From Myxococcota bacterium (GTDB lineage: Bacteria > Myxococcota_A > Polyangia > Polyangiales > Houyiibacteriaceae), in assembly GCA_039030515.1 (NCBI GenBank), contig JBCCEA010000051.1, positions 1 through 23,084 on the forward strand: a DNA stretch of 23,084 nt, given 5' to 3'. Within the stretch, counting starts at the first letter, position 1. Every line of letters begins with the position of its first letter. The translations under genes were made by a program, and so were the position numbers. Positions 403 to 10,585 of the stretch are shown piece by piece. The notes under the pieces are model-generated. The model did not search any database. It was given only the letters and a program-made list of their open reading frames with translations, and was not told where the DNA came from.

Positions 403-1506
403 TTAGAGGTTTTGAATGCGCCGTCGTGCCTGTCGATGATCCGGGTCGAGTTCGATCACCCTCTCGAACGAGCGAACGGCTTCCTCACGCTGTTGTGAAG
501 CGAGGAGCGCATCGCCGAGCACCATCCAAGCTGCCGGCCACTGAGGGGCGACCTCGACCGCACGGCGCGCCCAGCTCAGCGCGCGTGAAGCACTGCCTTC
601 CTGCAGATGGACTCGAGCCATGCCGACGGCGCCCTCTGGATTTTCGGGCCGGTATCGGAGCGCTCGCACAAAGGATGCTCGGGCCAGTGCAGCGTGGCCG
701 AGGCGTTGGGCGGTGCGGCCGGTCCGAGCCGCATTTTTGGATAGGTTGCGCAGCTCGGACTCGTTGAATTTATCAAAGACCGGATCGTTTCTGCTCGCGC
801 GCAAAAGCCGCTCATCTTCTTCTGCCGCGTCGAGCGCTCCATCTGCAGGCGTTTTGGTTTGGACTGCATTCAACTCGGCTGGCGTGCGCTGAGCCTCCAT
901 AGAAGAACCTGAGACCTCAGATGAAGCCGGCGCTTCCGAGGGCACTGTCATCGGAGTGACCTCGGTCAGCGGAGTGACCCTGAGCGCACTTGCCCGGTTT
1001 GCGCCGAGATCGGCGTAGTAGGGCCCGACGATCGACGAGACCGCGACCACCGCGAGCAGGCCCATGGCGAAACCGAGCATCAGGCTCCCTGCAGAACAAA
1101 GCCAGCGCCAAGAGCGCTTGAATTCTGAAGTCGAGCTGAGGAGTCTCGGCGGTAGTTTGGGAGAGGCGTATTGCGTTTTCGGGGGCTCTGAGGTTGCGCC
1201 TTGAGCTCTCGCCTCCCGCTGAGGCGAAGCTCGCCGCAATGTCGATGTGCTGGCCGAAGGTTTTGTGGAGACTGAACCTGCCGCGCTGAACGAATAGAGC
1301 CCCGAAAACTCAAAGCCTCGAGCCGAAGACGCACTCCCGTACGATCCCATCGCAGCATCGACTCCTGCAGGATGTATCTGCTTGGGACGCGTCACGTTCG
1401 GAACGGTCGGTCTCGAGCGCGCACTGCGAGACGACAAAGCACCAGGGTCAAGCAAGCGATTCAGAGTCGAAGGCAGTCTCGGCCCTCGGTTTTTTGACTC
1501 GAGCAT
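403..1506 (-). CDS. Single-pass membrane protein with Ser/Ala-rich N-terminal region and C-terminal TPR repeats
   Basis: 367-aa ORF with AGGAGG just upstream of the ATG. Hydrophobic helix LMLGFAMGLLAVVAVSSIVG. TPR-like motifs: FVRALRYRPENPEGAVGMA, AVEVAPQWPAAWMVLGDALLA, FERVIELDPDH. Confidence 0.8.
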   Translation of the reverse strand: MLESKNRGPRLPSTLNRLLDPGALSSRSARSRPTVPNVTRPKQIHPAGVDAAMGSYGSASSARGFEFSGLYSFSAAGSVSTKPSASTSTLRRASPQREARAQGATSEPPKTQYASPKLPPRLLSSTSEFKRSWRWLCSAGSLMLGFAMGLLAVVAVSSIVGPYYADLGANRASALRVTPLTEVTPMTVPSEAPASSEVSGSSMEAQRTPAELNAVQTKTPADGALDAAEEDERLLRASRNDPVFDKFNESELRNLSKNAARTGRTAQRLGHAALARASFVRALRYRPENPEGAVGMARVHLQEGSASRALSWARRAVEVAPQWPAAWMVLGDALLASQQREEAVRSFERVIELDPDHRQARRRIQNL

Positions 1507-1708: not shown

Positions 1709-2152
1709 GTGGCAGGAAACGTCGTCGTCACCGGGCATCTGTGCATGCCTCTTCCGATGTCCAAGGAGGGCGCCATGCTCACGGCGTCCCCGGTGGCGCT
1801 TCCCTTCGTCGCCAGTTCCGCGACAACCCCGCCCATGCTCTGTTCAGGTGATGAGACAGCTGCTCCGGTTTGGATGTTGCCTTACATAGTTGGCTCGTTT
1901 ACGACTCCAGGTATGTTGCGGATGCGGGTGGTGCTCCTGAAAGGCGATCAGCCTTCTCGTGCGATCTCTTTGGGTGGGCGTTCGGTGTTGACCGAGGGAA
2001 CTCCGCTCACCGGAGAGGTTCTCGGGACCGTAATCACTCCAGCGTTGATGGTGCAGGGAACGAGCGTCACGACCGATCCTGCTTTGGCGTATTACTTTCC
2101 TCTCCATCTGTTTCCTTCAACGCAGTCCCCGCCCATCCTTGAGGGCGGCTGA
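1709..2152 (+). CDS. Putative contractile injection system spike-tip protein (Afp10/Pvc10-like, PAAR-like)
   Basis: 147-aa ORF with GTG start. The motif order C-x-GDE ... Y-x4-F-x2-PG ... L-x-GDQ ... GG-x-x-VL-x-x-G ... V-x-x-PA ... D-x4-Y matches my recollection of Afp10/Pvc10-family spike tips, as does the length. Confidence 0.6.
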   Translation: MAGNVVVTGHLCMPLPMSKEGAMLTASPVALPFVASSATTPPMLCSGDETAAPVWMLPYIVGSFTTPGMLRMRVVLLKGDQPSRAISLGGRSVLTEGTPLTGEVLGTVITPALMVQGTSVTTDPALAYYFPLHLFPSTQSPPILEGG

Positions 2153-2160
2153 GTCGACCC

Positions 2161-2724
2161 GTGCGCGCTTCTAGGCGATGGCTGCGGATCGCGTTGGTTC
2201 TGCTTGCGTTTGTGCTCGCACCGGTTTTGGTATCGACATTCGATCTTCAGTCCCACTTTGAGCTGGAGGCGATTCAGTCGACCATTCGAGGGGCAGGATG
2301 GTGGGGGATGCTCGTCTTTGTCCTGATGTTTAGCGTGGGCGAGCTGCTGCATATTCCCGGCATCGTATTCGTTGCGGCATCGATGCTGGTCTACGATCGG
2401 TTTCTCGGCACCCTCATAGCCTACGCTGGAGCGGTAGTGGCCGTGACGGTGAGTTTCTTGGTGGTGCGTACCCTCGGCGGCCAAGTTCTCGGTACCCTCG
2501 AGCAGCCTTGGGTCCGGCGAGCCCTGCTCCGTCTCGACCAACGTCCCATTCGAACTGTCATCCTGCTGCGCATCGTGCTTTGGATGTTGCCGGCACTCAA
2601 TTACGCGCTCGCACTGACCCGGATTCGCCTTTTTCACTACGTTCTAGGTTCCGCGCTGGGGCTGCTGCCGCCGATCGTGCTGATCTCACTCCTGTTCGAC
2701 TGGTTTCTGGAGCGCCTGTCTTGA
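2161..2724 (+). CDS. TVP38/TMEM64 (DedA/VTT superfamily) membrane protein
   Basis: Multiple TM helices. Motifs HIPG, VSFLVVRTLG, ILLRIV...P..LNYALALTRIRLFHYVLGSALGLLP. Confidence 0.85.
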   Translation: MRASRRWLRIALVLLAFVLAPVLVSTFDLQSHFELEAIQSTIRGAGWWGMLVFVLMFSVGELLHIPGIVFVAASMLVYDRFLGTLIAYAGAVVAVTVSFLVVRTLGGQVLGTLEQPWVRRALLRLDQRPIRTVILLRIVLWMLPALNYALALTRIRLFHYVLGSALGLLPPIVLISLLFDWFLERLS

Positions 2725-3476
2725 TCTTGAATTCACCCCTGCTTCGCGAGTTTGTGCACGGTTTCTCTACCCGAGCGGGAGGCGTGAGCGAGGGCCCGTT
2801 TCACGCGCTGAACCTCGGGCGCAGTTTGGGCGACCGTCCATCTGCCGTTACGGAAAACCGCAGGAGGTTTGCCGAGGCCGCCCGCTACGATGCGAACGCC
2901 CTAGTGGAAGCCCACCAGGTGCACGGGGCCGCGGTTCGGGTGATCGACCCGGGTGAAGATCCGGCCGCCTCCTCTCAGAAGCCGGCTGACGCGCTGATCG
3001 GCCGGGATGGGGTGACGGTTGGGATTCGGGTTGCGGATTGCGTTCCCATCTTGATCGCCGATCCCAAGACGGGGTGGGTTGCCGCGGTTCATGCTGGATG
3101 GCGGGGAATCGTTGCCGGTGTGGTTCAGGAGACCTTCCGGGCACTTTACCGTTTGGGCGCCTCGCCCGCAGACTGCTGCGCCGCAATCGGTCCCCACATC
3201 GAAGCGTGCCACTTTGAAGTGGGTGAAGATGTTGCAAGTCAGATACAGGCGGCTGCCGCGGGAGCGACGGTGGTTTTTGAAGACTCAGGCAGTCTCCGGG
3301 TCTCTCTAGAGGCGGCAGTGCGGGCCCAGATTCTCGATGCGGGGCTTTCTGCCGACCGGATCGACCGAATCGCTGGATGCACTTTTGCTGAGCAGGATCG
3401 CTTCTTTTCTTACCGTCGCGACTCGGGAACGACTGGACGCCACCTGGCGGTGATCCAGTCGAGGGAGGCTTCTTAG
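2721..3476 (+). CDS. pgeF: Peptidoglycan editing factor / purine nucleoside phosphorylase PgeF (YfiH)
   Basis: HGFSTRAGGVS, LNLG, QVHG, ADCVPIL, AAVHAGWRG, IGPHI..C.FEVG, FFSYRR. Start placed at TTG 2721, which overlaps the DedA stop (TTGA) and has GGAG upstream. Confidence 0.92.
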   Translation: MILNSPLLREFVHGFSTRAGGVSEGPFHALNLGRSLGDRPSAVTENRRRFAEAARYDANALVEAHQVHGAAVRVIDPGEDPAASSQKPADALIGRDGVTVGIRVADCVPILIADPKTGWVAAVHAGWRGIVAGVVQETFRALYRLGASPADCCAAIGPHIEACHFEVGEDVASQIQAAAAGATVVFEDSGSLRVSLEAAVRAQILDAGLSADRIDRIAGCTFAEQDRFFSYRRDSGTTGRHLAVIQSREAS

Positions 3477-3535
3477 TTCACGTTTTCCGCCGCTATTTTG
3501 GCGAGAGCGCTGCTCGTGCTAGCCCAAGGCTTCAA

Positions 3536-4378
3536 ATGATGGACCAGCCCGAGCGCACAAAGGCGTCCAAAGACGCTTCGGAAAAGCGAACCATCGGACG
3601 TGGCGTGTTCCGAAATTGCGATGGCTGCGGCGCGACCCTTCGGGCGGAGGAGTTCACCGAGAACTACGAAGTCTGTCCCAAATGCGGCAAGCACTATCGG
3701 CTCGATGGAGACGGCTGGATCGAATTGCTGTTGGACTCCGGCTCCTGGGTCGAACTTGATGAAGGCCTGCGCTCTGCCGATCCTCTTCAGTTTCACGACG
3801 GGCAGAGCTACAGCGCGCGCCTGGAAGCGGCGCAGAGAAAAACAGGTCTGAGCGATGCGGTTGCGGTCGGAAGCGGAGCCATCGAGGGAAGACCGGTCGA
3901 ATTTGGAGTCTTTCAGTTCCGTTTCATGGGGGGATCGATGGGCTCGGTTGTCGGAGAAAAGCTCGCTCGGCTGTTCGAACGAGCCCTCGAGCGCAAGCGG
4001 CCCGCGATCCTTCTCTCGTCTTCGGGTGGGGCGCGGATGCAGGAGGGGGTGCTTTCGCTGATGCAGATGGCCAAAACCGTATCGGCACTCGGGCAGCTTC
4101 GAGAAGCTTCGATCCCGTTTCTCAGCGTTTTGCTGCATCCAACGACTGGAGGCGTCGCTGCCAGCTTTGCCCTCCTCGGAGACGTCAATATTGCGGAGCC
4201 TGAAGCACTCATCGGATTTGCGGGTCCTCGGGTGATCGAGCAAACGATCAAGCAAACGCTGCCGGAGGGATTTCAGAGTTCGGAGTTTCAAATGGAGCAC
4301 GGGCAAATCGACATCATCGCGAGCCGCCACGAACTTCGAGATACGCTCAGTACCTTGCTGTCTCATATGCTCGATTGA
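3536..4378 (+). CDS. accD: Acetyl-CoA carboxylase carboxyltransferase beta subunit
   Basis: Zn finger CDGC...CPKC, FMGGSMGSVVGEK, SGGARMQEG, PTTGGVAASFA, AEPEALIGFAGPRVIEQTI, LPEGFQ. Confidence 0.97.
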   Translation: MMDQPERTKASKDASEKRTIGRGVFRNCDGCGATLRAEEFTENYEVCPKCGKHYRLDGDGWIELLLDSGSWVELDEGLRSADPLQFHDGQSYSARLEAAQRKTGLSDAVAVGSGAIEGRPVEFGVFQFRFMGGSMGSVVGEKLARLFERALERKRPAILLSSSGGARMQEGVLSLMQMAKTVSALGQLREASIPFLSVLLHPTTGGVAASFALLGDVNIAEPEALIGFAGPRVIEQTIKQTLPEGFQSSEFQMEHGQIDIIASRHELRDTLSTLLSHMLD

Positions 4379-4578
4379 TCGCGTCCTGTGTTGATCCCGC
4401 GGCATGGGGGCGAACGGCCCAAGAGCTGAACGAATGATCGCCCCGGGGGCAAATGGAGGATGCCCGCTGCCGACCATTTCAAGAAGCGGCAGCGATCCCG
4501 CGCGCCAGGGTGAGGCCCGTCCGTGTCGGATCGCGGCGGCGCAGCCAAGACCGGCCTTCTTCTACCCATGAGAATCGG

Positions 4579-5877
4579 ATGACGACGATGGAGACAGATG
4601 AATATCGAGAGATGCTCGCTTGGATTTTTCGGCTTGAGTCGAGAGGGGTAAAACTCGGTTTGGATCGCATCGCTTCGGCTGCAGAGCGGCGAGGTCATCC
4701 GGAGCGAGCTCGGCTTTGCGTGCACGTTGCCGGCACGAACGGTAAGGGCAGCGTTTGTGCAATGCTCGAGGCGATGCTGCGGTCGGCGGGGTACCGCACC
4801 GGGCTTTTCACTTCTCCCCACCTGCATCAGTACACAGAGCGCATCCGTCTGGACGGCGTGCCGGTTGCAAGAGATCGATTGCTGCCTGCGGCGCGCACGC
4901 TCCGTCATGCGATGGAGTCGGGGGCACTCCCCCAGCTTAGCTTTTACGAATTCACCACTCTCCTTGGTTTTGAATTATTTTCGCACTCTGAGTGTGAAAT
5001 TGTGATCTACGAAGTGGGTATGGGCGGTTTGCTCGACGCGACCAATCTGGTCGACCCGCTCCTAAGCGTGATCACGCGCATCGGATTCGATCATACCAAG
5101 GCGCTCGGCGCGACTCTGGCTGAGATCGCGGCGCAAAAGGCCGGCATCATCAAGCCAGGTAGACCCGTCGTTGCCGGAATGCGCGACCCTGAAGCATCCA
5201 AGGTAGTCCGTGATCGCGCCCGGGACCTCGAGTGCCCACTGCTTCTGCTCGGGGACGATTTCGAACTAGAGGCGTCTGCTGATCTTGCGGTACGGGTGCA
5301 CTCAGAACGTTACGACTCGCTTCGTTCTGCGCTACGAGGACGCTTTCAACACGACAATATCGCATGTGCGGTGGCGGCAGCTGCGCTCCTGCGCCCGTCC
5401 TTCCCAAGGCTCGACGCTCAGGCGGTCCGGCGTGGTTTGGCAGCGGTTCGCTGGCCGGGCAGGATGGAGGCGATCTCGGCGGCCGGTATCGATACCGAGA
5501 TTTGGATGGACGGCGCACACAATCCTGACGGCTGCCAAGCGCTTGCATCCTTTGTACGTGAGCTCGAGCAAAAACCTACGATCGTGATCTTTGCCGGCAT
5601 GGCAGATAAAGATCTCTCGGCCATGCTTCGGGTTTTGAGTACGGTGACAGAAGATTTCGTCTATCCACCTCTTCCCCTGCGACGCGCAGCCCTGCCTGAC
5701 GATCTCGCAGGTCTGCAGCCGGGACGCGTCGTCTCTAGTGTCGCGGCCGCGCTCGACTTTGCGCGTGCACGTGCGGGTTCGCACGGCCGAATCGTGGTGG
5801 CCGGCTCTCTATTTTTGCTGGCCGAAGCGCGCGCCACCCTGCTCGGCATCGAAACCGATCTCCTCATTCCGATGTAG
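4579..5877 (+). CDS. folC: Dihydrofolate synthase/folylpolyglutamate synthase
   Basis: VHVAGTNGKGS, TSPHL, ERI, EVGMGGLLDATN, DH..ALG..L.EIA.QKAGIIK, WPGR, DGAHN, GSLFL. Start is ATG 4579 or 4588; the ORF-track extension to 4453 is unlikely. Confidence 0.95.
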   Translation: MTTMETDEYREMLAWIFRLESRGVKLGLDRIASAAERRGHPERARLCVHVAGTNGKGSVCAMLEAMLRSAGYRTGLFTSPHLHQYTERIRLDGVPVARDRLLPAARTLRHAMESGALPQLSFYEFTTLLGFELFSHSECEIVIYEVGMGGLLDATNLVDPLLSVITRIGFDHTKALGATLAEIAAQKAGIIKPGRPVVAGMRDPEASKVVRDRARDLECPLLLLGDDFELEASADLAVRVHSERYDSLRSALRGRFQHDNIACAVAAAALLRPSFPRLDAQAVRRGLAAVRWPGRMEAISAAGIDTEIWMDGAHNPDGCQALASFVRELEQKPTIVIFAGMADKDLSAMLRVLSTVTEDFVYPPLPLRRAALPDDLAGLQPGRVVSSVAAALDFARARAGSHGRIVVAGSLFLLAEARATLLGIETDLLIPM

Positions 5878-5968: not shown

Positions 5969-7627
5969 ATGACCTCTGCTGTGGCTCCGAACGTGGAACT
6001 AGCTGTGGAAGTAACTCCGAGCGGTTTGCCTTCACTTCGCTTTCGTGGCGAGTGGCTGGACGACTCGAAGGACCCCGTTGCCGCTGCGCTTGCGTTTGCC
6101 GACCCGGAGATCGTGGAAGGGGCGAATCGAGTGGTGCTTTTTGGCGCCGGACTTGGCTATCGAATCCTCAGGTTGGAAGAGCTTGGAGTGGATCCGATCA
6201 TCGTCTTCGAGCCCAATCGCGAGGTGGTCTCACTTTGCCGCCAATATGTGCCTCGCGCGCATCAGCGAGCCAGGGTGTTTACCGAGGTCACCCCGTTTCT
6301 CGACTATTTGATCGACGATTATCAGCCGGATCACAGCACGCGGCTTCTTGCGGCTCCCGCGTATCGACGGGCCTATCCTGAATTTTTCGCCAAGGTAGAA
6401 CATACACTTCGAGATGCTCAGGGTTTTGTTTCCATCAAGAAGAAGAGCTTGGAACAACGGTCTCAGGCGATGGTGGAAGCTGCGATGATCAACCTCGGTC
6501 GCGCCGCCGAGGTTCCTGATGCCCTCTCACTCGGTAGACCCCTCGAGGGCAGCGCCGCTTTTATCGTGGCTGCCGGTCCTTCCCTCGACAAGAACGGATC
6601 GCTCCTCTTCGAGGCTTCCAAAAAAGGCGCTATTTTTGCAGTCAATACCTCTGCGCCGGTGGTGAAGCACTACGGGGCAGAGATCGACTGTTTGGTCAGC
6701 ATCGAGGCGATGCGGGCGGCAGACCAGATGCACGGCACGGAGCCTCGCTGCATCGCGCTGGACTTCACCGCGCATCCGGCGAGCTTTGAGGTGCCTTCAG
6801 AAACCAAGATCGCGTTCGCCCAGGATCATCCTGCCTTTGCTCCTCTCGCGACCAAGCTGGGTCTTCGTCGCATGCGCTATGGTGCGAGCGTGGCGACCGC
6901 CGCGGTATCGCTTGCGTGGCATCTCGGCGCGGATCCGATCGTGGTGGTCGGCCAAGATCTCGCGTTCACCGGTGGTCGCGTCTATGCGACGGGCACCGGT
7001 CGAGAGGCAGCCACTGCCACGGTGAACGGCGAAATATTGACCGTAGAATACGGTTTGGACGGCTTTTTCGAAGCCCATGGAGTGAAGCCACCGTCCAAGC
7101 ACCAGCCTCGGCAAACCGTCGCCGCCTGGGGAGGAGGCATGGTCGAGAGTGCGTTCGATCTCTCACTTTTTCGCCGCTGGTTTGAGGGCCTAGCCCACTT
7201 CTCTAAGGACGTTCGTTTCATCAATGCAACTGAGGGGGGCGCCCGTATCGAAGGCTGGGAAGAACATACCTTGCGTGCGGTGATCGACACGCTTTCCCCT
7301 CGTTCGGATGAGCTGATCGCTGCGGCTAAGCGAGCGAAAACGATGTCGGCCGAGGCAGTTGAGTCGCTGCGGCAGGAGACCCGATCGACCGCAAAACTCG
7401 TCGAGCGTGCCGCGAGAAAGTGCCTCAAAGCGCAATCCCGGAGGCAAGAGTCTGCTGCGATGAAGGTCCGTAAACTTGCAGACAATGCGCCGTTTGTAAG
7501 AGCGCATGCGGCAGGGCCTCTGTCTGAGCTTCGTTCAGATGAGTCTTTGGCGCATCGACAGCGCTATCTACGTACTTTTGAAATTATTCGCGATTCTGCC
7601 CGGACGATACGAGAGCTCGCTGAATGA
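5969..7627 (+). CDS. Motility-associated factor (Maf, MAF_flag10/DUF115) family nonulosonate glycosyltransferase
   Basis: N-terminal LFGAGLGY/IIVFEP region. Central IVAAGPSLDKN, SVATAAVSLA..LGADPIVVVGQDLAF and FINATEGGARIEG, all typical of Maf proteins. Confidence 0.88.
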   Translation: MTSAVAPNVELAVEVTPSGLPSLRFRGEWLDDSKDPVAAALAFADPEIVEGANRVVLFGAGLGYRILRLEELGVDPIIVFEPNREVVSLCRQYVPRAHQRARVFTEVTPFLDYLIDDYQPDHSTRLLAAPAYRRAYPEFFAKVEHTLRDAQGFVSIKKKSLEQRSQAMVEAAMINLGRAAEVPDALSLGRPLEGSAAFIVAAGPSLDKNGSLLFEASKKGAIFAVNTSAPVVKHYGAEIDCLVSIEAMRAADQMHGTEPRCIALDFTAHPASFEVPSETKIAFAQDHPAFAPLATKLGLRRMRYGASVATAAVSLAWHLGADPIVVVGQDLAFTGGRVYATGTGREAATATVNGEILTVEYGLDGFFEAHGVKPPSKHQPRQTVAAWGGGMVESAFDLSLFRRWFEGLAHFSKDVRFINATEGGARIEGWEEHTLRAVIDTLSPRSDELIAAAKRAKTMSAEAVESLRQETRSTAKLVERAARKCLKAQSRRQESAAMKVRKLADNAPFVRAHAAGPLSELRSDESLAHRQRYLRTFEIIRDSARTIRELAE

Positions 7628-8667
7628 CTCCGGGCTCCTTCGCCATCCGCGGTCGCTTCATCGGTGACGCGCATCCGCCCTATGTGATTCCTGAGATCGG
7701 AATCAATCACGAGGGCGATATGAATAAAGCGCTTCAAATGATCGATGATGCAAAGGCTGCCGGTGCAGAGTGCGTGAAATTTCAATGCCATATCCTCGAA
7801 GACGAGATGTCCGATGCGGCAAAGAAGGTTGTTCCAGGCAACGCTTCAGAGTCTATCTGGGAGATCATGAGCAGATGCGCTCTGAGTGAATCGCAAGCCA
7901 AGGACCTGAAGGCTTATGCTGAAGACCTCGGTCTGACCTACCTGTGCACCCCATTTTCGCGAGCGGCGGCCGACAGGCTTGAATCGATGGGAGTCGATGC
8001 CTACAAAATTGGTTCTGGTGAGTGCAACAATTACCCGCTCATCGATCACATCGCCTCATTCGGTAAACCGATCATTTTGAGTACCGGAATGAACGATCTT
8101 GCCAGCATCGCCCGCGCGGTCGACGTGCTGGAGAAGCGTTCGGCATCTTACGCGTTGCTGCACTGCACCTCGATGTATCCGACGCCGTACCCCAAAGTGC
8201 GTCTTGGCGCGCTCGACGAGATGCGTCGTCGATTTCCCGGGGTGACCGTGGGGCTTTCCGATCACTCTCTCGGCAACTGGACCTGCTTTGGTGCGATACC
8301 GCTTGGGGCCCGCGTCTTAGAAAAACACTTTACCAGTGATCGAAACTGGCCGGGTCCGGATGTGCCGATATCGATAACGCCCCGTGAGCTGTCGGAGCTG
8401 GTCGAAGGGAGTCGGGCGATCTTCCAGGCGCTTGGCGGCGAGAAAGCTGTGCTGCAAGAGGAAGAGCCGACCATTCGTTTTGCCTACGCCAGCGTGGTGA
8501 CGCTCGGTCAGGTTCGGGCGGGGGAACAGTTCACCAAGCAAAATCTCTGGGTGAAGAGGCCAGGCACCGGTGAGATTCTCGCCGAGCATTTCGAGTCGAT
8601 TCTCGGTCGTCGCGCAGAATGCGACGTGCCTGCGGATGCGCAGTTGAGGTGGGAGCAGATCGTTTGA
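7624..8667 (+). CDS. neuB: N-acetylneuraminate synthase (NeuB/SiaC-like) with C-terminal AFP-like/SAF domain
   Basis: EIGINHEG, EDEMS..AK.V.PGNA..SI.EIM.RCAL, TPFSRAAA, YKIGSGECNNYPL, PIILSTGM, LHCT..YPT, GLSDH, LEKHFT, WVKRPGTG. ATGA overlap with maf. Confidence 0.95.
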   Translation: MTPGSFAIRGRFIGDAHPPYVIPEIGINHEGDMNKALQMIDDAKAAGAECVKFQCHILEDEMSDAAKKVVPGNASESIWEIMSRCALSESQAKDLKAYAEDLGLTYLCTPFSRAAADRLESMGVDAYKIGSGECNNYPLIDHIASFGKPIILSTGMNDLASIARAVDVLEKRSASYALLHCTSMYPTPYPKVRLGALDEMRRRFPGVTVGLSDHSLGNWTCFGAIPLGARVLEKHFTSDRNWPGPDVPISITPRELSELVEGSRAIFQALGGEKAVLQEEEPTIRFAYASVVTLGQVRAGEQFTKQNLWVKRPGTGEILAEHFESILGRRAECDVPADAQLRWEQIV

Positions 8668-9827
8668 AAAAGCGTGTCGTATTTTTGAGCGGTACTCGGG
8701 CAGACTTTGGAAAAATCAAGTCGTTGATTCGCACGCTACTACAGCCACCGTTTCAGTTTGATGTGCATATATTTGCGACAGGAATGCACATGGAGCCTAA
8801 GTACGGCTTCACCGTCGAAGAGATTCAAAAGTGCGGCTTTCCCAATATCTACCGCTTTATCAATCAGTCGAGCCAGGGACTGATGGACAGGAGCCTTGCG
8901 CATACGGTTCTCGGGTTTGGAGACTACGTCCGCTTGATTCAGCCCGATCTTATCGTGGTGCACGGTGATCGAGTGGAGGCTCTTGCGGGAGCCATGGTGG
9001 GCGCGCTGAGCAATGTTCGGGTGGCGCATATCGAGGGCGGCGAGATCTCCGGAACGGTCGACGAACTGATTCGTCACTCCGTCACCAAAATGAGCCACAT
9101 TCACTTCGTTTCCAACGAAGAAGCCAAACGCCGTCTGGTTCAGCTTGGTGAGCCGGAGCCGAGCATTCACGTCATCGGATCTCCCGATGTCGACATCATG
9201 AACTCTCCGGATTTGCCGAGCCTTGACGAGGTCAAAGCCTACTACGAGATCGATTTTGACCGCTACGGCATCCTCGTATTTCATCCGGTAACCACGAGTG
9301 TCGACGGGCTTCGCGAGGAAACTCGTGCGCTGCTGCACGGCGTACTCGATTCCGGGCGCAACTGGGTCGCCATCTACCCCAATAGCGATCTTGGCTCCGA
9401 CATCATCTTGGAAGAATACGATCGATTGCTGAGAGATCGGGTCGAGGTGCGTCTCTTTCCTTCCTTGCGGTTTGAGTCGATGCTGGTGTTGCTCAAATAC
9501 GCTGAGCTGATCGTCGGCAACTCCTCGATGGGTATCCGCGAAGCTCCCTATTACGGGGTGCCGACGGTCAATGTCGGATCCCGGCAGGCGGGTCGAAGCG
9601 CGAACCCAAACATCGTGACCGTAGCCCCAGCCTATGACGAAGTGCGCGGGGCGATCGACCGCGCGGCTCAGTTGCGCACCTGGCTCAAGCCCGTGCAGGA
9701 GTTTGGCCGTGGAGACAGTCATCAGCGCTTTCGAGCGGTTTTAGAGCGTGGGGATATTTGGGGCATCAGCGTGCAAAAACAGTTTTGCGATTTGCCGATC
9801 ACCGCTTTCGATCGAAATGCCGCATGA
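8664..9827 (+). CDS. neuC: Hydrolysing UDP-GlcNAc 2-epimerase (NeuC/SiaA-like)
   Basis: GTRADFGK, TGMH, VHGDR.EALAGA, HIEGGE.SGTVDELIRHS, IGSPD.D, FHPVTT, YPNSD.G, GNSS.GIREAP. TTG start at 8664 overlaps the neuB stop (TTGA). Confidence 0.95.
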   Translation: MKKRVVFLSGTRADFGKIKSLIRTLLQPPFQFDVHIFATGMHMEPKYGFTVEEIQKCGFPNIYRFINQSSQGLMDRSLAHTVLGFGDYVRLIQPDLIVVHGDRVEALAGAMVGALSNVRVAHIEGGEISGTVDELIRHSVTKMSHIHFVSNEEAKRRLVQLGEPEPSIHVIGSPDVDIMNSPDLPSLDEVKAYYEIDFDRYGILVFHPVTTSVDGLREETRALLHGVLDSGRNWVAIYPNSDLGSDIILEEYDRLLRDRVEVRLFPSLRFESMLVLLKYAELIVGNSSMGIREAPYYGVPTVNVGSRQAGRSANPNIVTVAPAYDEVRGAIDRAAQLRTWLKPVQEFGRGDSHQRFRAVLERGDIWGISVQKQFCDLPITAFDRNAA

Positions 9828-10585
9828 GAAGACTCAGTGAAACTCTTGGCCAAACCCTCGCGGTCATTCCCGCTCGAGGAGGGTCTCGAGGGATTCCTCA
9901 AAAAAATATCGCTCCGGTTTTTGGACGCCCGCTGCTCGCTTGGACCATCGAGGCTGCTCTCAAGGCCGATGAGATCGACCGGGTCGTGGTATCGAGCGAC
10001 TGTGACGAGGTCCTCAAAGTTGCCCGTCGATGGGGTGCAGAGCCGCTGCACAGGCCTAAAGAGCTTGCAACCGACATCTGCGCAAGCGAGCCGGTCCTAG
10101 GGCATGCCTTTTCTACGCTCCAGTCAGAGGGAGCCAACGTCGAGACGCTCGTCTTGCTGCAGCCGACTTCGCCGCTCCGGGATGCGGGCCATATCGACGA
10201 GGCACTTGCGCTCTTGGGCGCCGGGGTGAACGCAGTGATCAGCGTGTACGAGCCACGGCATTCACCCCATAAATGCCTGCAGTTGAGCCCGAGCGGCAGC
10301 CTTCAAGGCCTGGTCGACGAGGATGCGCCTTTTCGTCGACGACAAGATCTGCCGATGGCCCTTATGCCGAACGGTGCGATCTACGCGATCACTGCGGAGG
10401 CATTTCGGCAAACGCGAAGGCTTTTGACCGATCGTACGGCGCCCTACATCATGGCCGCCCACTTGAGTTTGGACATCGATACCCCGAAAGACCTGCAGGA
10501 GGCAGAGCGTCGATTGCGCACGCTGAGGCCCGCCTCGGTTGGGCTCAGCACGAGACGACGATCGACACTATTCAATTCGCTGTGA
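9824..10585 (+). CDS. neuA: Acylneuraminate cytidylyltransferase (CMP-sialic acid synthetase)
   Basis: AVIPARGGSRGIPQKNI, RP.ELATD, LLQPTSPLR, RQDLP, PNGAIY, SLDIDT..D. ATG 9824 overlaps the neuC stop (ATGA). Confidence 0.93.
   Translation: MRRLSETLGQTLAVIPARGGSRGIPQKNIAPVFGRPLLAWTIEAALKADEIDRVVVSSDCDEVLKVARRWGAEPLHRPKELATDICASEPVLGHAFSTLQSEGANVETLVLLQPTSPLRDAGHIDEALALLGAGVNAVISVYEPRHSPHKCLQLSPSGSLQGLVDEDAPFRRRQDLPMALMPNGAIYAITAEAFRQTRRLLTDRTAPYIMAAHLSLDIDTPKDLQEAERRLRTLRPASVGLSTRRRSTLFNSL

Follow-up and report, generated by a model that had tools for sequence, protein, structure and literature searches.

PF19267, the CIS_spike_tip family of Pfam, is treated as a marker of extracellular contractile injection systems (eCIS). 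A gene of this family is present in a Myxococcota bacterium on a contig of 23,084 nucleotides (the window in what follows, which is the whole of contig C51 in a 4.08-Mb assembly that is 85% complete), where it lies directly ahead of housekeeping genes. This position raises the question of whether the gene still encodes a spike tip and, if so, which spike that tip would cap.

The spike-tip gene and its housekeeping neighbourhood

The part of the window that surrounds the gene contains the following features:

403..1506, minus strand: TPR-containing gene, divergently oriented, upstream of the tip gene; no relation to contractile injection systems was found
1709..2152, plus strand: PF19267 / Afp10-Pvc10-type spike-tip gene, 147 aa from GTG 1709 or 125 aa from ATG 1775
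1763..1777, plus strand: Shine-Dalgarno-like AAGGAGG (1763-1769) and ATG 1775, a possible true start, use of which would shorten the product by 22 N-terminal residues
1829..2092, plus strand: conserved core, residues 41-128, with the motifs GDE, Y..G.F.tPG, L..DQ, G..V.T.G and PA...DP (genome search match, alignment A1)
2161..2724, plus strand: DedA/VTT membrane protein, 8 bp 3' of the tip gene
2766..5877, plus strand: pgeF-accD-folC housekeeping run

The preliminary description had recognized the Afp10/Pvc10 type from the order of the sequence motifs and had named profile and structural similarity to these proteins as the test of the assignment; both kinds of similarity were detected. The CSGDE/DQ/DP-type motifs that it quoted are all present in the 147-aa ORF read from the GTG start. 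ORF 1709-2152 scores 36.3 bits (E 6e-9) against PF19267, above the cut-off of 24.1, and this is the sole Pfam match at E <=0.1; the families of T6SS PAAR, DUF4150 and DUF4280 tips (PF05488, PF13665 and PF14107) gave no match. With an independent family alignment (32 members), HHalign returned a probability of 96.7% over 124 columns, and the corresponding profile assigned the ORF 46.1 bits versus at most 7.2 for shuffled ORFs (470 scored of 500 full shuffles). A PDB search with the family profile including the tip matched a single chain, Pvc10 (6p22_D, E 4e-24); phmmer with the single tip protein found nothing relevant in the PDB.

The AlphaFold2 model of the tip, which leans on the family alignment (pLDDT 76 with the 33 rows of A1; an uninformative 37 with the single sequence), predicts a Pvc10-like conical beta fold. 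In the Foldseek search of this model, Pvc10 6p22_D was the sole match under E 0.001 (TM 0.75, E 1.3e-5), and VIA-align superimposed the two with Z 14.3 over 133 residues, the next four matches being T6SS and phage spike-tip or baseplate entries with Z 5-7. The ESM Atlas gave no feature match at >=0.9 for the tip, and its own model has a pLDDT of 0.28. The protein genuinely belongs to the known tip family, as a divergent member whose gene has an unusual, though recurrent, detached location. As originally described, it has no toxin extension: the 147-aa ORF lacks an effector domain at either end and no effector-immunity pair adjoins it, the neighbours being dedA and the TPR gene.

The tip gene is not part of a tube, sheath, spike and baseplate cluster on the 23-kb contig; none of the 22 ORFs scanned there encodes such a component, and both this observation of the preliminary description and its gene order, with the tip 8 bp before dedA followed by pgeF-accD-folC, agree with the ORF map and the Pfam matches. 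A contig from another sample (X3 record 19) crosses the tip-dedA junction with zero differences, so that the adjacency is no assembly artefact. The two genes are probably co-transcribed; no sigma-70-like promoter was found. In relatives, pgeF adjoins accD in three of five cases (with identical gene order in one genome, G002), dedA is next to neither pgeF nor accD in 14 loci, and we found neither tip nor dedA in the pgeF-accD loci and no tip beside dedA orthologues. The tip-dedA arrangement thus looks lineage-specific.

Several other features of the window were noticed. Positions 1-401, at the contig end, contain three REP-like repeats of ~125 nt at very high read depth, and the genome contains 37 occurrences of a 17-mer from these repeats. 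At position 1663, upstream of the tip start, a related strain carries an inserted 21 bp that resemble the adjacent sequence. Positions 5969-10585 encode a nonulosonic-acid synthesis block, with a Maf/MptE-like gene, neuB, UDP-GlcNAc 2-epimerase and a cytidylyltransferase.

Divergence, eroded termini and selection

The tip is both rare and highly diverged. Its closest genuine relative among 1.84 billion representatives shows 33% identity (E 8e-4; two other matches, to repeat proteins, were judged spurious), and identity to any family member is at most 29-33%. No homologue was found in 60 relatives, and a search for close relatives returned only the tip itself among 19 candidates; a metagenome scan with P0028 as the query yielded one short, weak locus. 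The end branch of the tip has a length of 8.1 versus a median of 0.24, and the tree cannot place it. The family signal is concentrated in residues 41-128, which supply 43 of the 46.1 bits (43.1 from residue 41 on). The first 40 residues contribute ~3 bits (the full score was reached by 31 and 67 of 500 partial shuffles) and the last 19 residues none. Both termini, by analogy with PAAR architecture, presumably belong to the base that binds the spike.

The start codon bears on the N-terminus. GTG 1709 has no Shine-Dalgarno sequence, and a strong AAGGAGG lies upstream of ATG 1775, at which a database protein (P0002, 125 aa) also begins; a 125-aa product is therefore possible. GGAGG or AGGAG precedes 43 of 516 starts of long ORFs versus 49 of 2565 random ATGs. 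Initiation at this best ribosome site would delete the first repeat of the tip.

One explanation for this divergence is that the gene is an eroding relic, left by a lost eCIS, which is under relaxed selection and caps nothing, its frame being kept open mainly by its coupling to, and position at the head of, dedA-pgeF-accD-folC. Several observations fit such decay: the termini are eroded, 19 of the 35 family columns conserved at >=90% are lost (16 are kept), and retention is alike across conservation classes (16/35, 9/28 and 8/30), as near-uniform drift would give. Moreover, none of 87 genomes of the same family carries the tip, and on contig C31 the genome has a further tip that is broken, a DUF4150 truncated at its N-terminus. 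However, in simulations of neutral decay to 45-28% identity (substitutions only, without indels), 133, 60 and 37 of 2000 runs retained an open frame (2-7%). Among the differences listed for related strains, five of six in the ORF are silent (P 0.0065) and none is an indel, in a small set drawn from contigs under depth 5, all from one study. The sequence occurs in runs that are marine metagenomes of one study, with no RNA dataset among those listed. The third-position GC content (GC3) of the tip is 0.66 (genome median, 0.63) and the coding signal is strongest in its frame. With its genome-like codons, open frame and mostly silent differences, the tip looks resident and under purifying selection, and we regard the relic as an unlikely explanation.

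Selection combined with lost termini would also be compatible with a repurposed protein, in which the core of residues 41-128, perhaps translated from the strong ribosome site at ATG 1775, now serves a function that has nothing to do with injection, for example together with DedA in the envelope. Detached tips of relatives that are fused to Ig-like and OmpA domains (see below) give some precedent, but this tip has no second domain, its linkage to dedA is not conserved, there is no positive sign of another partner, and the modelled fold is still that of Pvc10. We consider such a new function somewhat less likely than simple decay. The "repurposed remnant" of the preliminary description stays a serious rival because of the eroded termini.

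Candidate spikes in the genome and in relatives

The preliminary description had further suggested that the tip acts in trans on an eCIS encoded elsewhere in the genome. The genome searches covered the 4.08-Mb, 85%-complete assembly apart from 8,000 bases, with ~15% of the genome unassembled; in this assembly, the profile search identified a single copy of the tip gene (match C51:1829-2092). The Pfam families for the eCIS sheath, T4-type tube, CIS tube and baseplate J matched only a prophage on contig C1, or nothing, and Pvc16 was not found. Searches with real eCIS proteins and with profiles built from eCIS loci likewise revealed no eCIS outside this prophage, and nowhere else in the assembly did we find any of Afp1/5, Afp2-4, Afp11 and Afp16. 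Weak additional matches to the CIS-tube profile on contigs C2, C16, C4 and C46 were not reported by the Pfam family. The suggestion therefore finds no support in the 85%-complete assembly. Action in trans would still be conceivable on another machine, as two T6SS spikes are encoded in the genome (see below).

An eCIS could still be encoded in sequence that the assembly lacks. In one relative, G108, the eCIS is scattered, with sheath, tube and Pvc16, a lone spike gene and a lone PF19267 tip on three contigs, and among 11 other genomes with a tip that were tested, nine have Pvc16, which together imply that an eCIS is available in most relatives; none was found here. In 4.08 Mb, searches with Pfam families and with eCIS-locus profiles detected no sheath, tube, baseplate or Pvc16 component beyond the prophage, and a scattered eCIS would need to be missed at several places. 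We would give this possibility about the same low weight as repurposing. Spreading of the eCIS over several contigs is seen in family f52 (loci L047, L049 and L051 of G108 and L052 of G168). The lone tips of G108 and G168 are both followed by an unannotated gene for 420-460 aa, and the two genes look homologous by eye.

The C1 prophage (G000:C1, ~184-212 kb) is a high-GC element that combines a capsid with an eCIS-like contractile tail, consisting of a sheath, a T4 gp19 tube, a CIS_tube protein, baseplate J and a 193-aa gpV-like spike (Phage_base_V). The major capsid gene and the spike-gene GC3 of 0.98 identify the locus as a prophage. With the tail complete to this extent and no tip gene seen by eye beside the spike (part of the genome being unreadable), the tip might cap the prophage spike. 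However, the difference in GC3 between the spike gene (0.98) and the tip (0.66) suggests that the prophage has arrived recently and that the tip is long resident. We consider this pairing the least probable of the explanations.

Several T6SS components, among them a blunt-ended spike, are encoded in the same genome. An orphan full-length VgrG is found on contig C47 (no relatives of its C-terminus were detected), and an hcp-tssE-tssF-tssG block at the end of contig C44. In the latter (G000:C44:26595-30863), hcp and tssF have a GC3 of 0.41, unlike the rest of the genome, and a second TssB/TssC was not found, which suggests a canonical T6SS that is incomplete or was recently acquired. Contig C27 carries a DUF2169-pentapeptide-DUF3540-DUF4150 cassette with an intact DUF4150 tip. 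No DUF4280 or PF05488 PAAR protein scored above the cut-off genome-wide.

A larger cluster, on contig C32 (G000:C32:23580-42206, locus L076), encodes TssB, TssC, TssK, a TssF-like protein, DotU, IcmF and IglE-N and resembles the Francisella pathogenicity island, with the order iglA-iglB-tube?-iglD, in a marine genome. Its TssC is nearest to Francisella IglB (E 2e-118, versus 6e-101 for the runner-up), and the presumed IglC-like tube has no match to IglC or in the PDB. An 846-aa protein of this cluster appears to be a PdpA-VgrG-like spike fused from what are two separate genes in relatives. The sole PDB match of its hub part, a weak one, is PdpA (E 0.26), and the 846-aa protein ends in a short, blunt VgrG-type beta-helix whose profile matches VgrGs, including that of Francisella (E 1.6e-7 and 5e-5). 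No recognizable tip gene was seen in the cluster, which runs near the contig end. At least 10 further genomes of the phylum contain similar clusters, most of which encode hub and short VgrG separately; in 10 of these genomes we found no PF19267 match, inside the clusters or elsewhere. DUF4280 is missing from six of the 10 (present in four), so that a Francisella-island-like cluster without a tip is not unusual.

Of 60 PF19267 loci in other genomes, all related to a single canonical family member, 47 lie at up to 10 kb from an eCIS core gene; the remaining 13 comprise five full 20-kb loci and others that are shorter. Scans of 400 genomes each of the phylum and the order added three and eight tip-bearing genomes, respectively, with 13 loci in the phylum of the window; these comprise four eCIS clusters and nine loci detached from eCIS. 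In one of the nine, in G712 (L183:9609-14639, G712:C15), a PF19267 tip and a T6SS-type vgrG on the opposite strand are arranged tail-to-tail, and no further eCIS core gene was found at up to 10 kb from the tip. This vgrG is preceded by an unannotated 676-aa ORF.

Three other detached loci encode diverged PF19267-like tips fused to extra domains. Members of the family usually have no extensions; in L184:8833-10077, L185:7847-10096 and L186:9963-12182, they are fused to Ig/carboxypeptidase-regulatory-like domains, and two of the three also to OmpA (one of the three was matched by the custom profile only). These could possibly be cargo-carrying tips.

Taking these observations together, we tentatively favour, at rather less than even probability, the view that the gene encodes a long-resident, highly diverged tip that has departed from any eCIS locus and is used in trans on a T6SS spike. 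The protein would be made from the housekeeping transcript, probably together with dedA-pgeF-accD-folC, and would cap either the PdpA-VgrG-like spike of C32 or the orphan VgrG of C47, where a single monomer, seated on the blunt terminus of the beta-helix trimer, would sharpen the spike without adding a toxin of its own. Capping of VgrG spikes by PAAR-type tips is established. The C32 spike is the more attractive candidate partner, because its cluster has no recognizable tip, whereas the VgrG of C47 has the DUF4150 protein of C27 available.

Several observations count against use on a T6SS spike: the termini of the tip show little or no homology and many near-invariant positions are lost, the intact DUF4150 of C27 is already a candidate tip for the C47 VgrG, and the adjacency of tip and vgrG in G712 is a single case. 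Nor do the 10 other genomes with Francisella-island-like clusters, all lacking a PF19267 match, support a rule that ties this family to such systems. A complex prediction for the tip with the last 130 residues of the C32 spike as a trimer, run without controls, scored 0.02 against a mark of 0.32 and carries no weight in either direction. A more specific scenario, to which we assign a low probability similar to that of the relic, is that an eCIS-type tip was domesticated into the housekeeping operon of a free-living marine host and replaced the IglG/DUF4280 tip on the fused spike of C32, its divergence then reflecting a base refitted to the new spike.

Relationship to known tips and spikes

PF19267 is located away from eCIS clusters both here and in nine of 13 other loci of the same phylum. 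Were binding of the tip to a T6SS spike demonstrated, the exchange of tips between eCIS and T6SS, hitherto argued mainly from phylogeny, would have a direct example, and the base residues that set spike specificity would become definable; if it is a relic, the sole lesson would be that PF19267 alone is unsuited for calling eCIS. The Francisella-island-like T6SS of C32 may be a more valuable lead than the tip. In the literature searched, we found no description of a detached PF19267 tip with a T6SS (the PAAR subtype tables of supplements, outside this search, may cover the family) and no account of T6SSii in Myxococcota, most subscription journals lying outside the search.

The closest known counterparts of the tip are Pvc10 (PDB 6P22 chain D) and Afp10, which it resembles in passing the Pfam cut-off, in the co-linear alignment and in the modelled structure. 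The aspartate of its GDE motif would, going by the alignments, correspond to D49 of Pvc10. Pvc10 is reported to have a conserved D49 and no iron ligands and to sit as a single copy on the Pvc8 trimer (PMC12546770). PMC6899500 lists Afp10 as the PAAR-like tip for the eCIS subtypes I, IIa, IIc and IId. The present tip differs from both proteins in its low identity, in its position outside an eCIS locus with no eCIS in the assembly, and in the lack of the C-terminal GxGxF strand and of several near-invariant residues.

The C32 cluster finds its counterpart in the Francisella T6SS-ii, whose spike consists of PdpA, VgrG and IglG (PMC5924787). The likeness extends to the gene order, the IglB-like TssC, IglE-N and the PdpA plus short-VgrG-like spike; the differences are the fusion of the PdpA-like and VgrG-like parts and the lack of a detected tip of the IglG/DUF4280 type.

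Orphan PAAR-type genes are well known. Like the orphan T6SS PAAR proteins (PF05488, DUF4150 and DUF4280), the tip is encoded by a stand-alone gene far from vgrG and shares the same general cone fold at Z 5-7, but it belongs to another sequence family. In Zhang et al. (2021; PMC8651086), whose main text does not mention Afp10 or Pvc10, vgrG lies within 20 genes of 62.3% of PAAR genes, which leaves over a third that are not near vgrG, and one PAAR subtype can serve T6SS and eCIS alike. Our best guess from the combined comparisons is that the tip, outside any eCIS locus, behaves like such an orphan PAAR.
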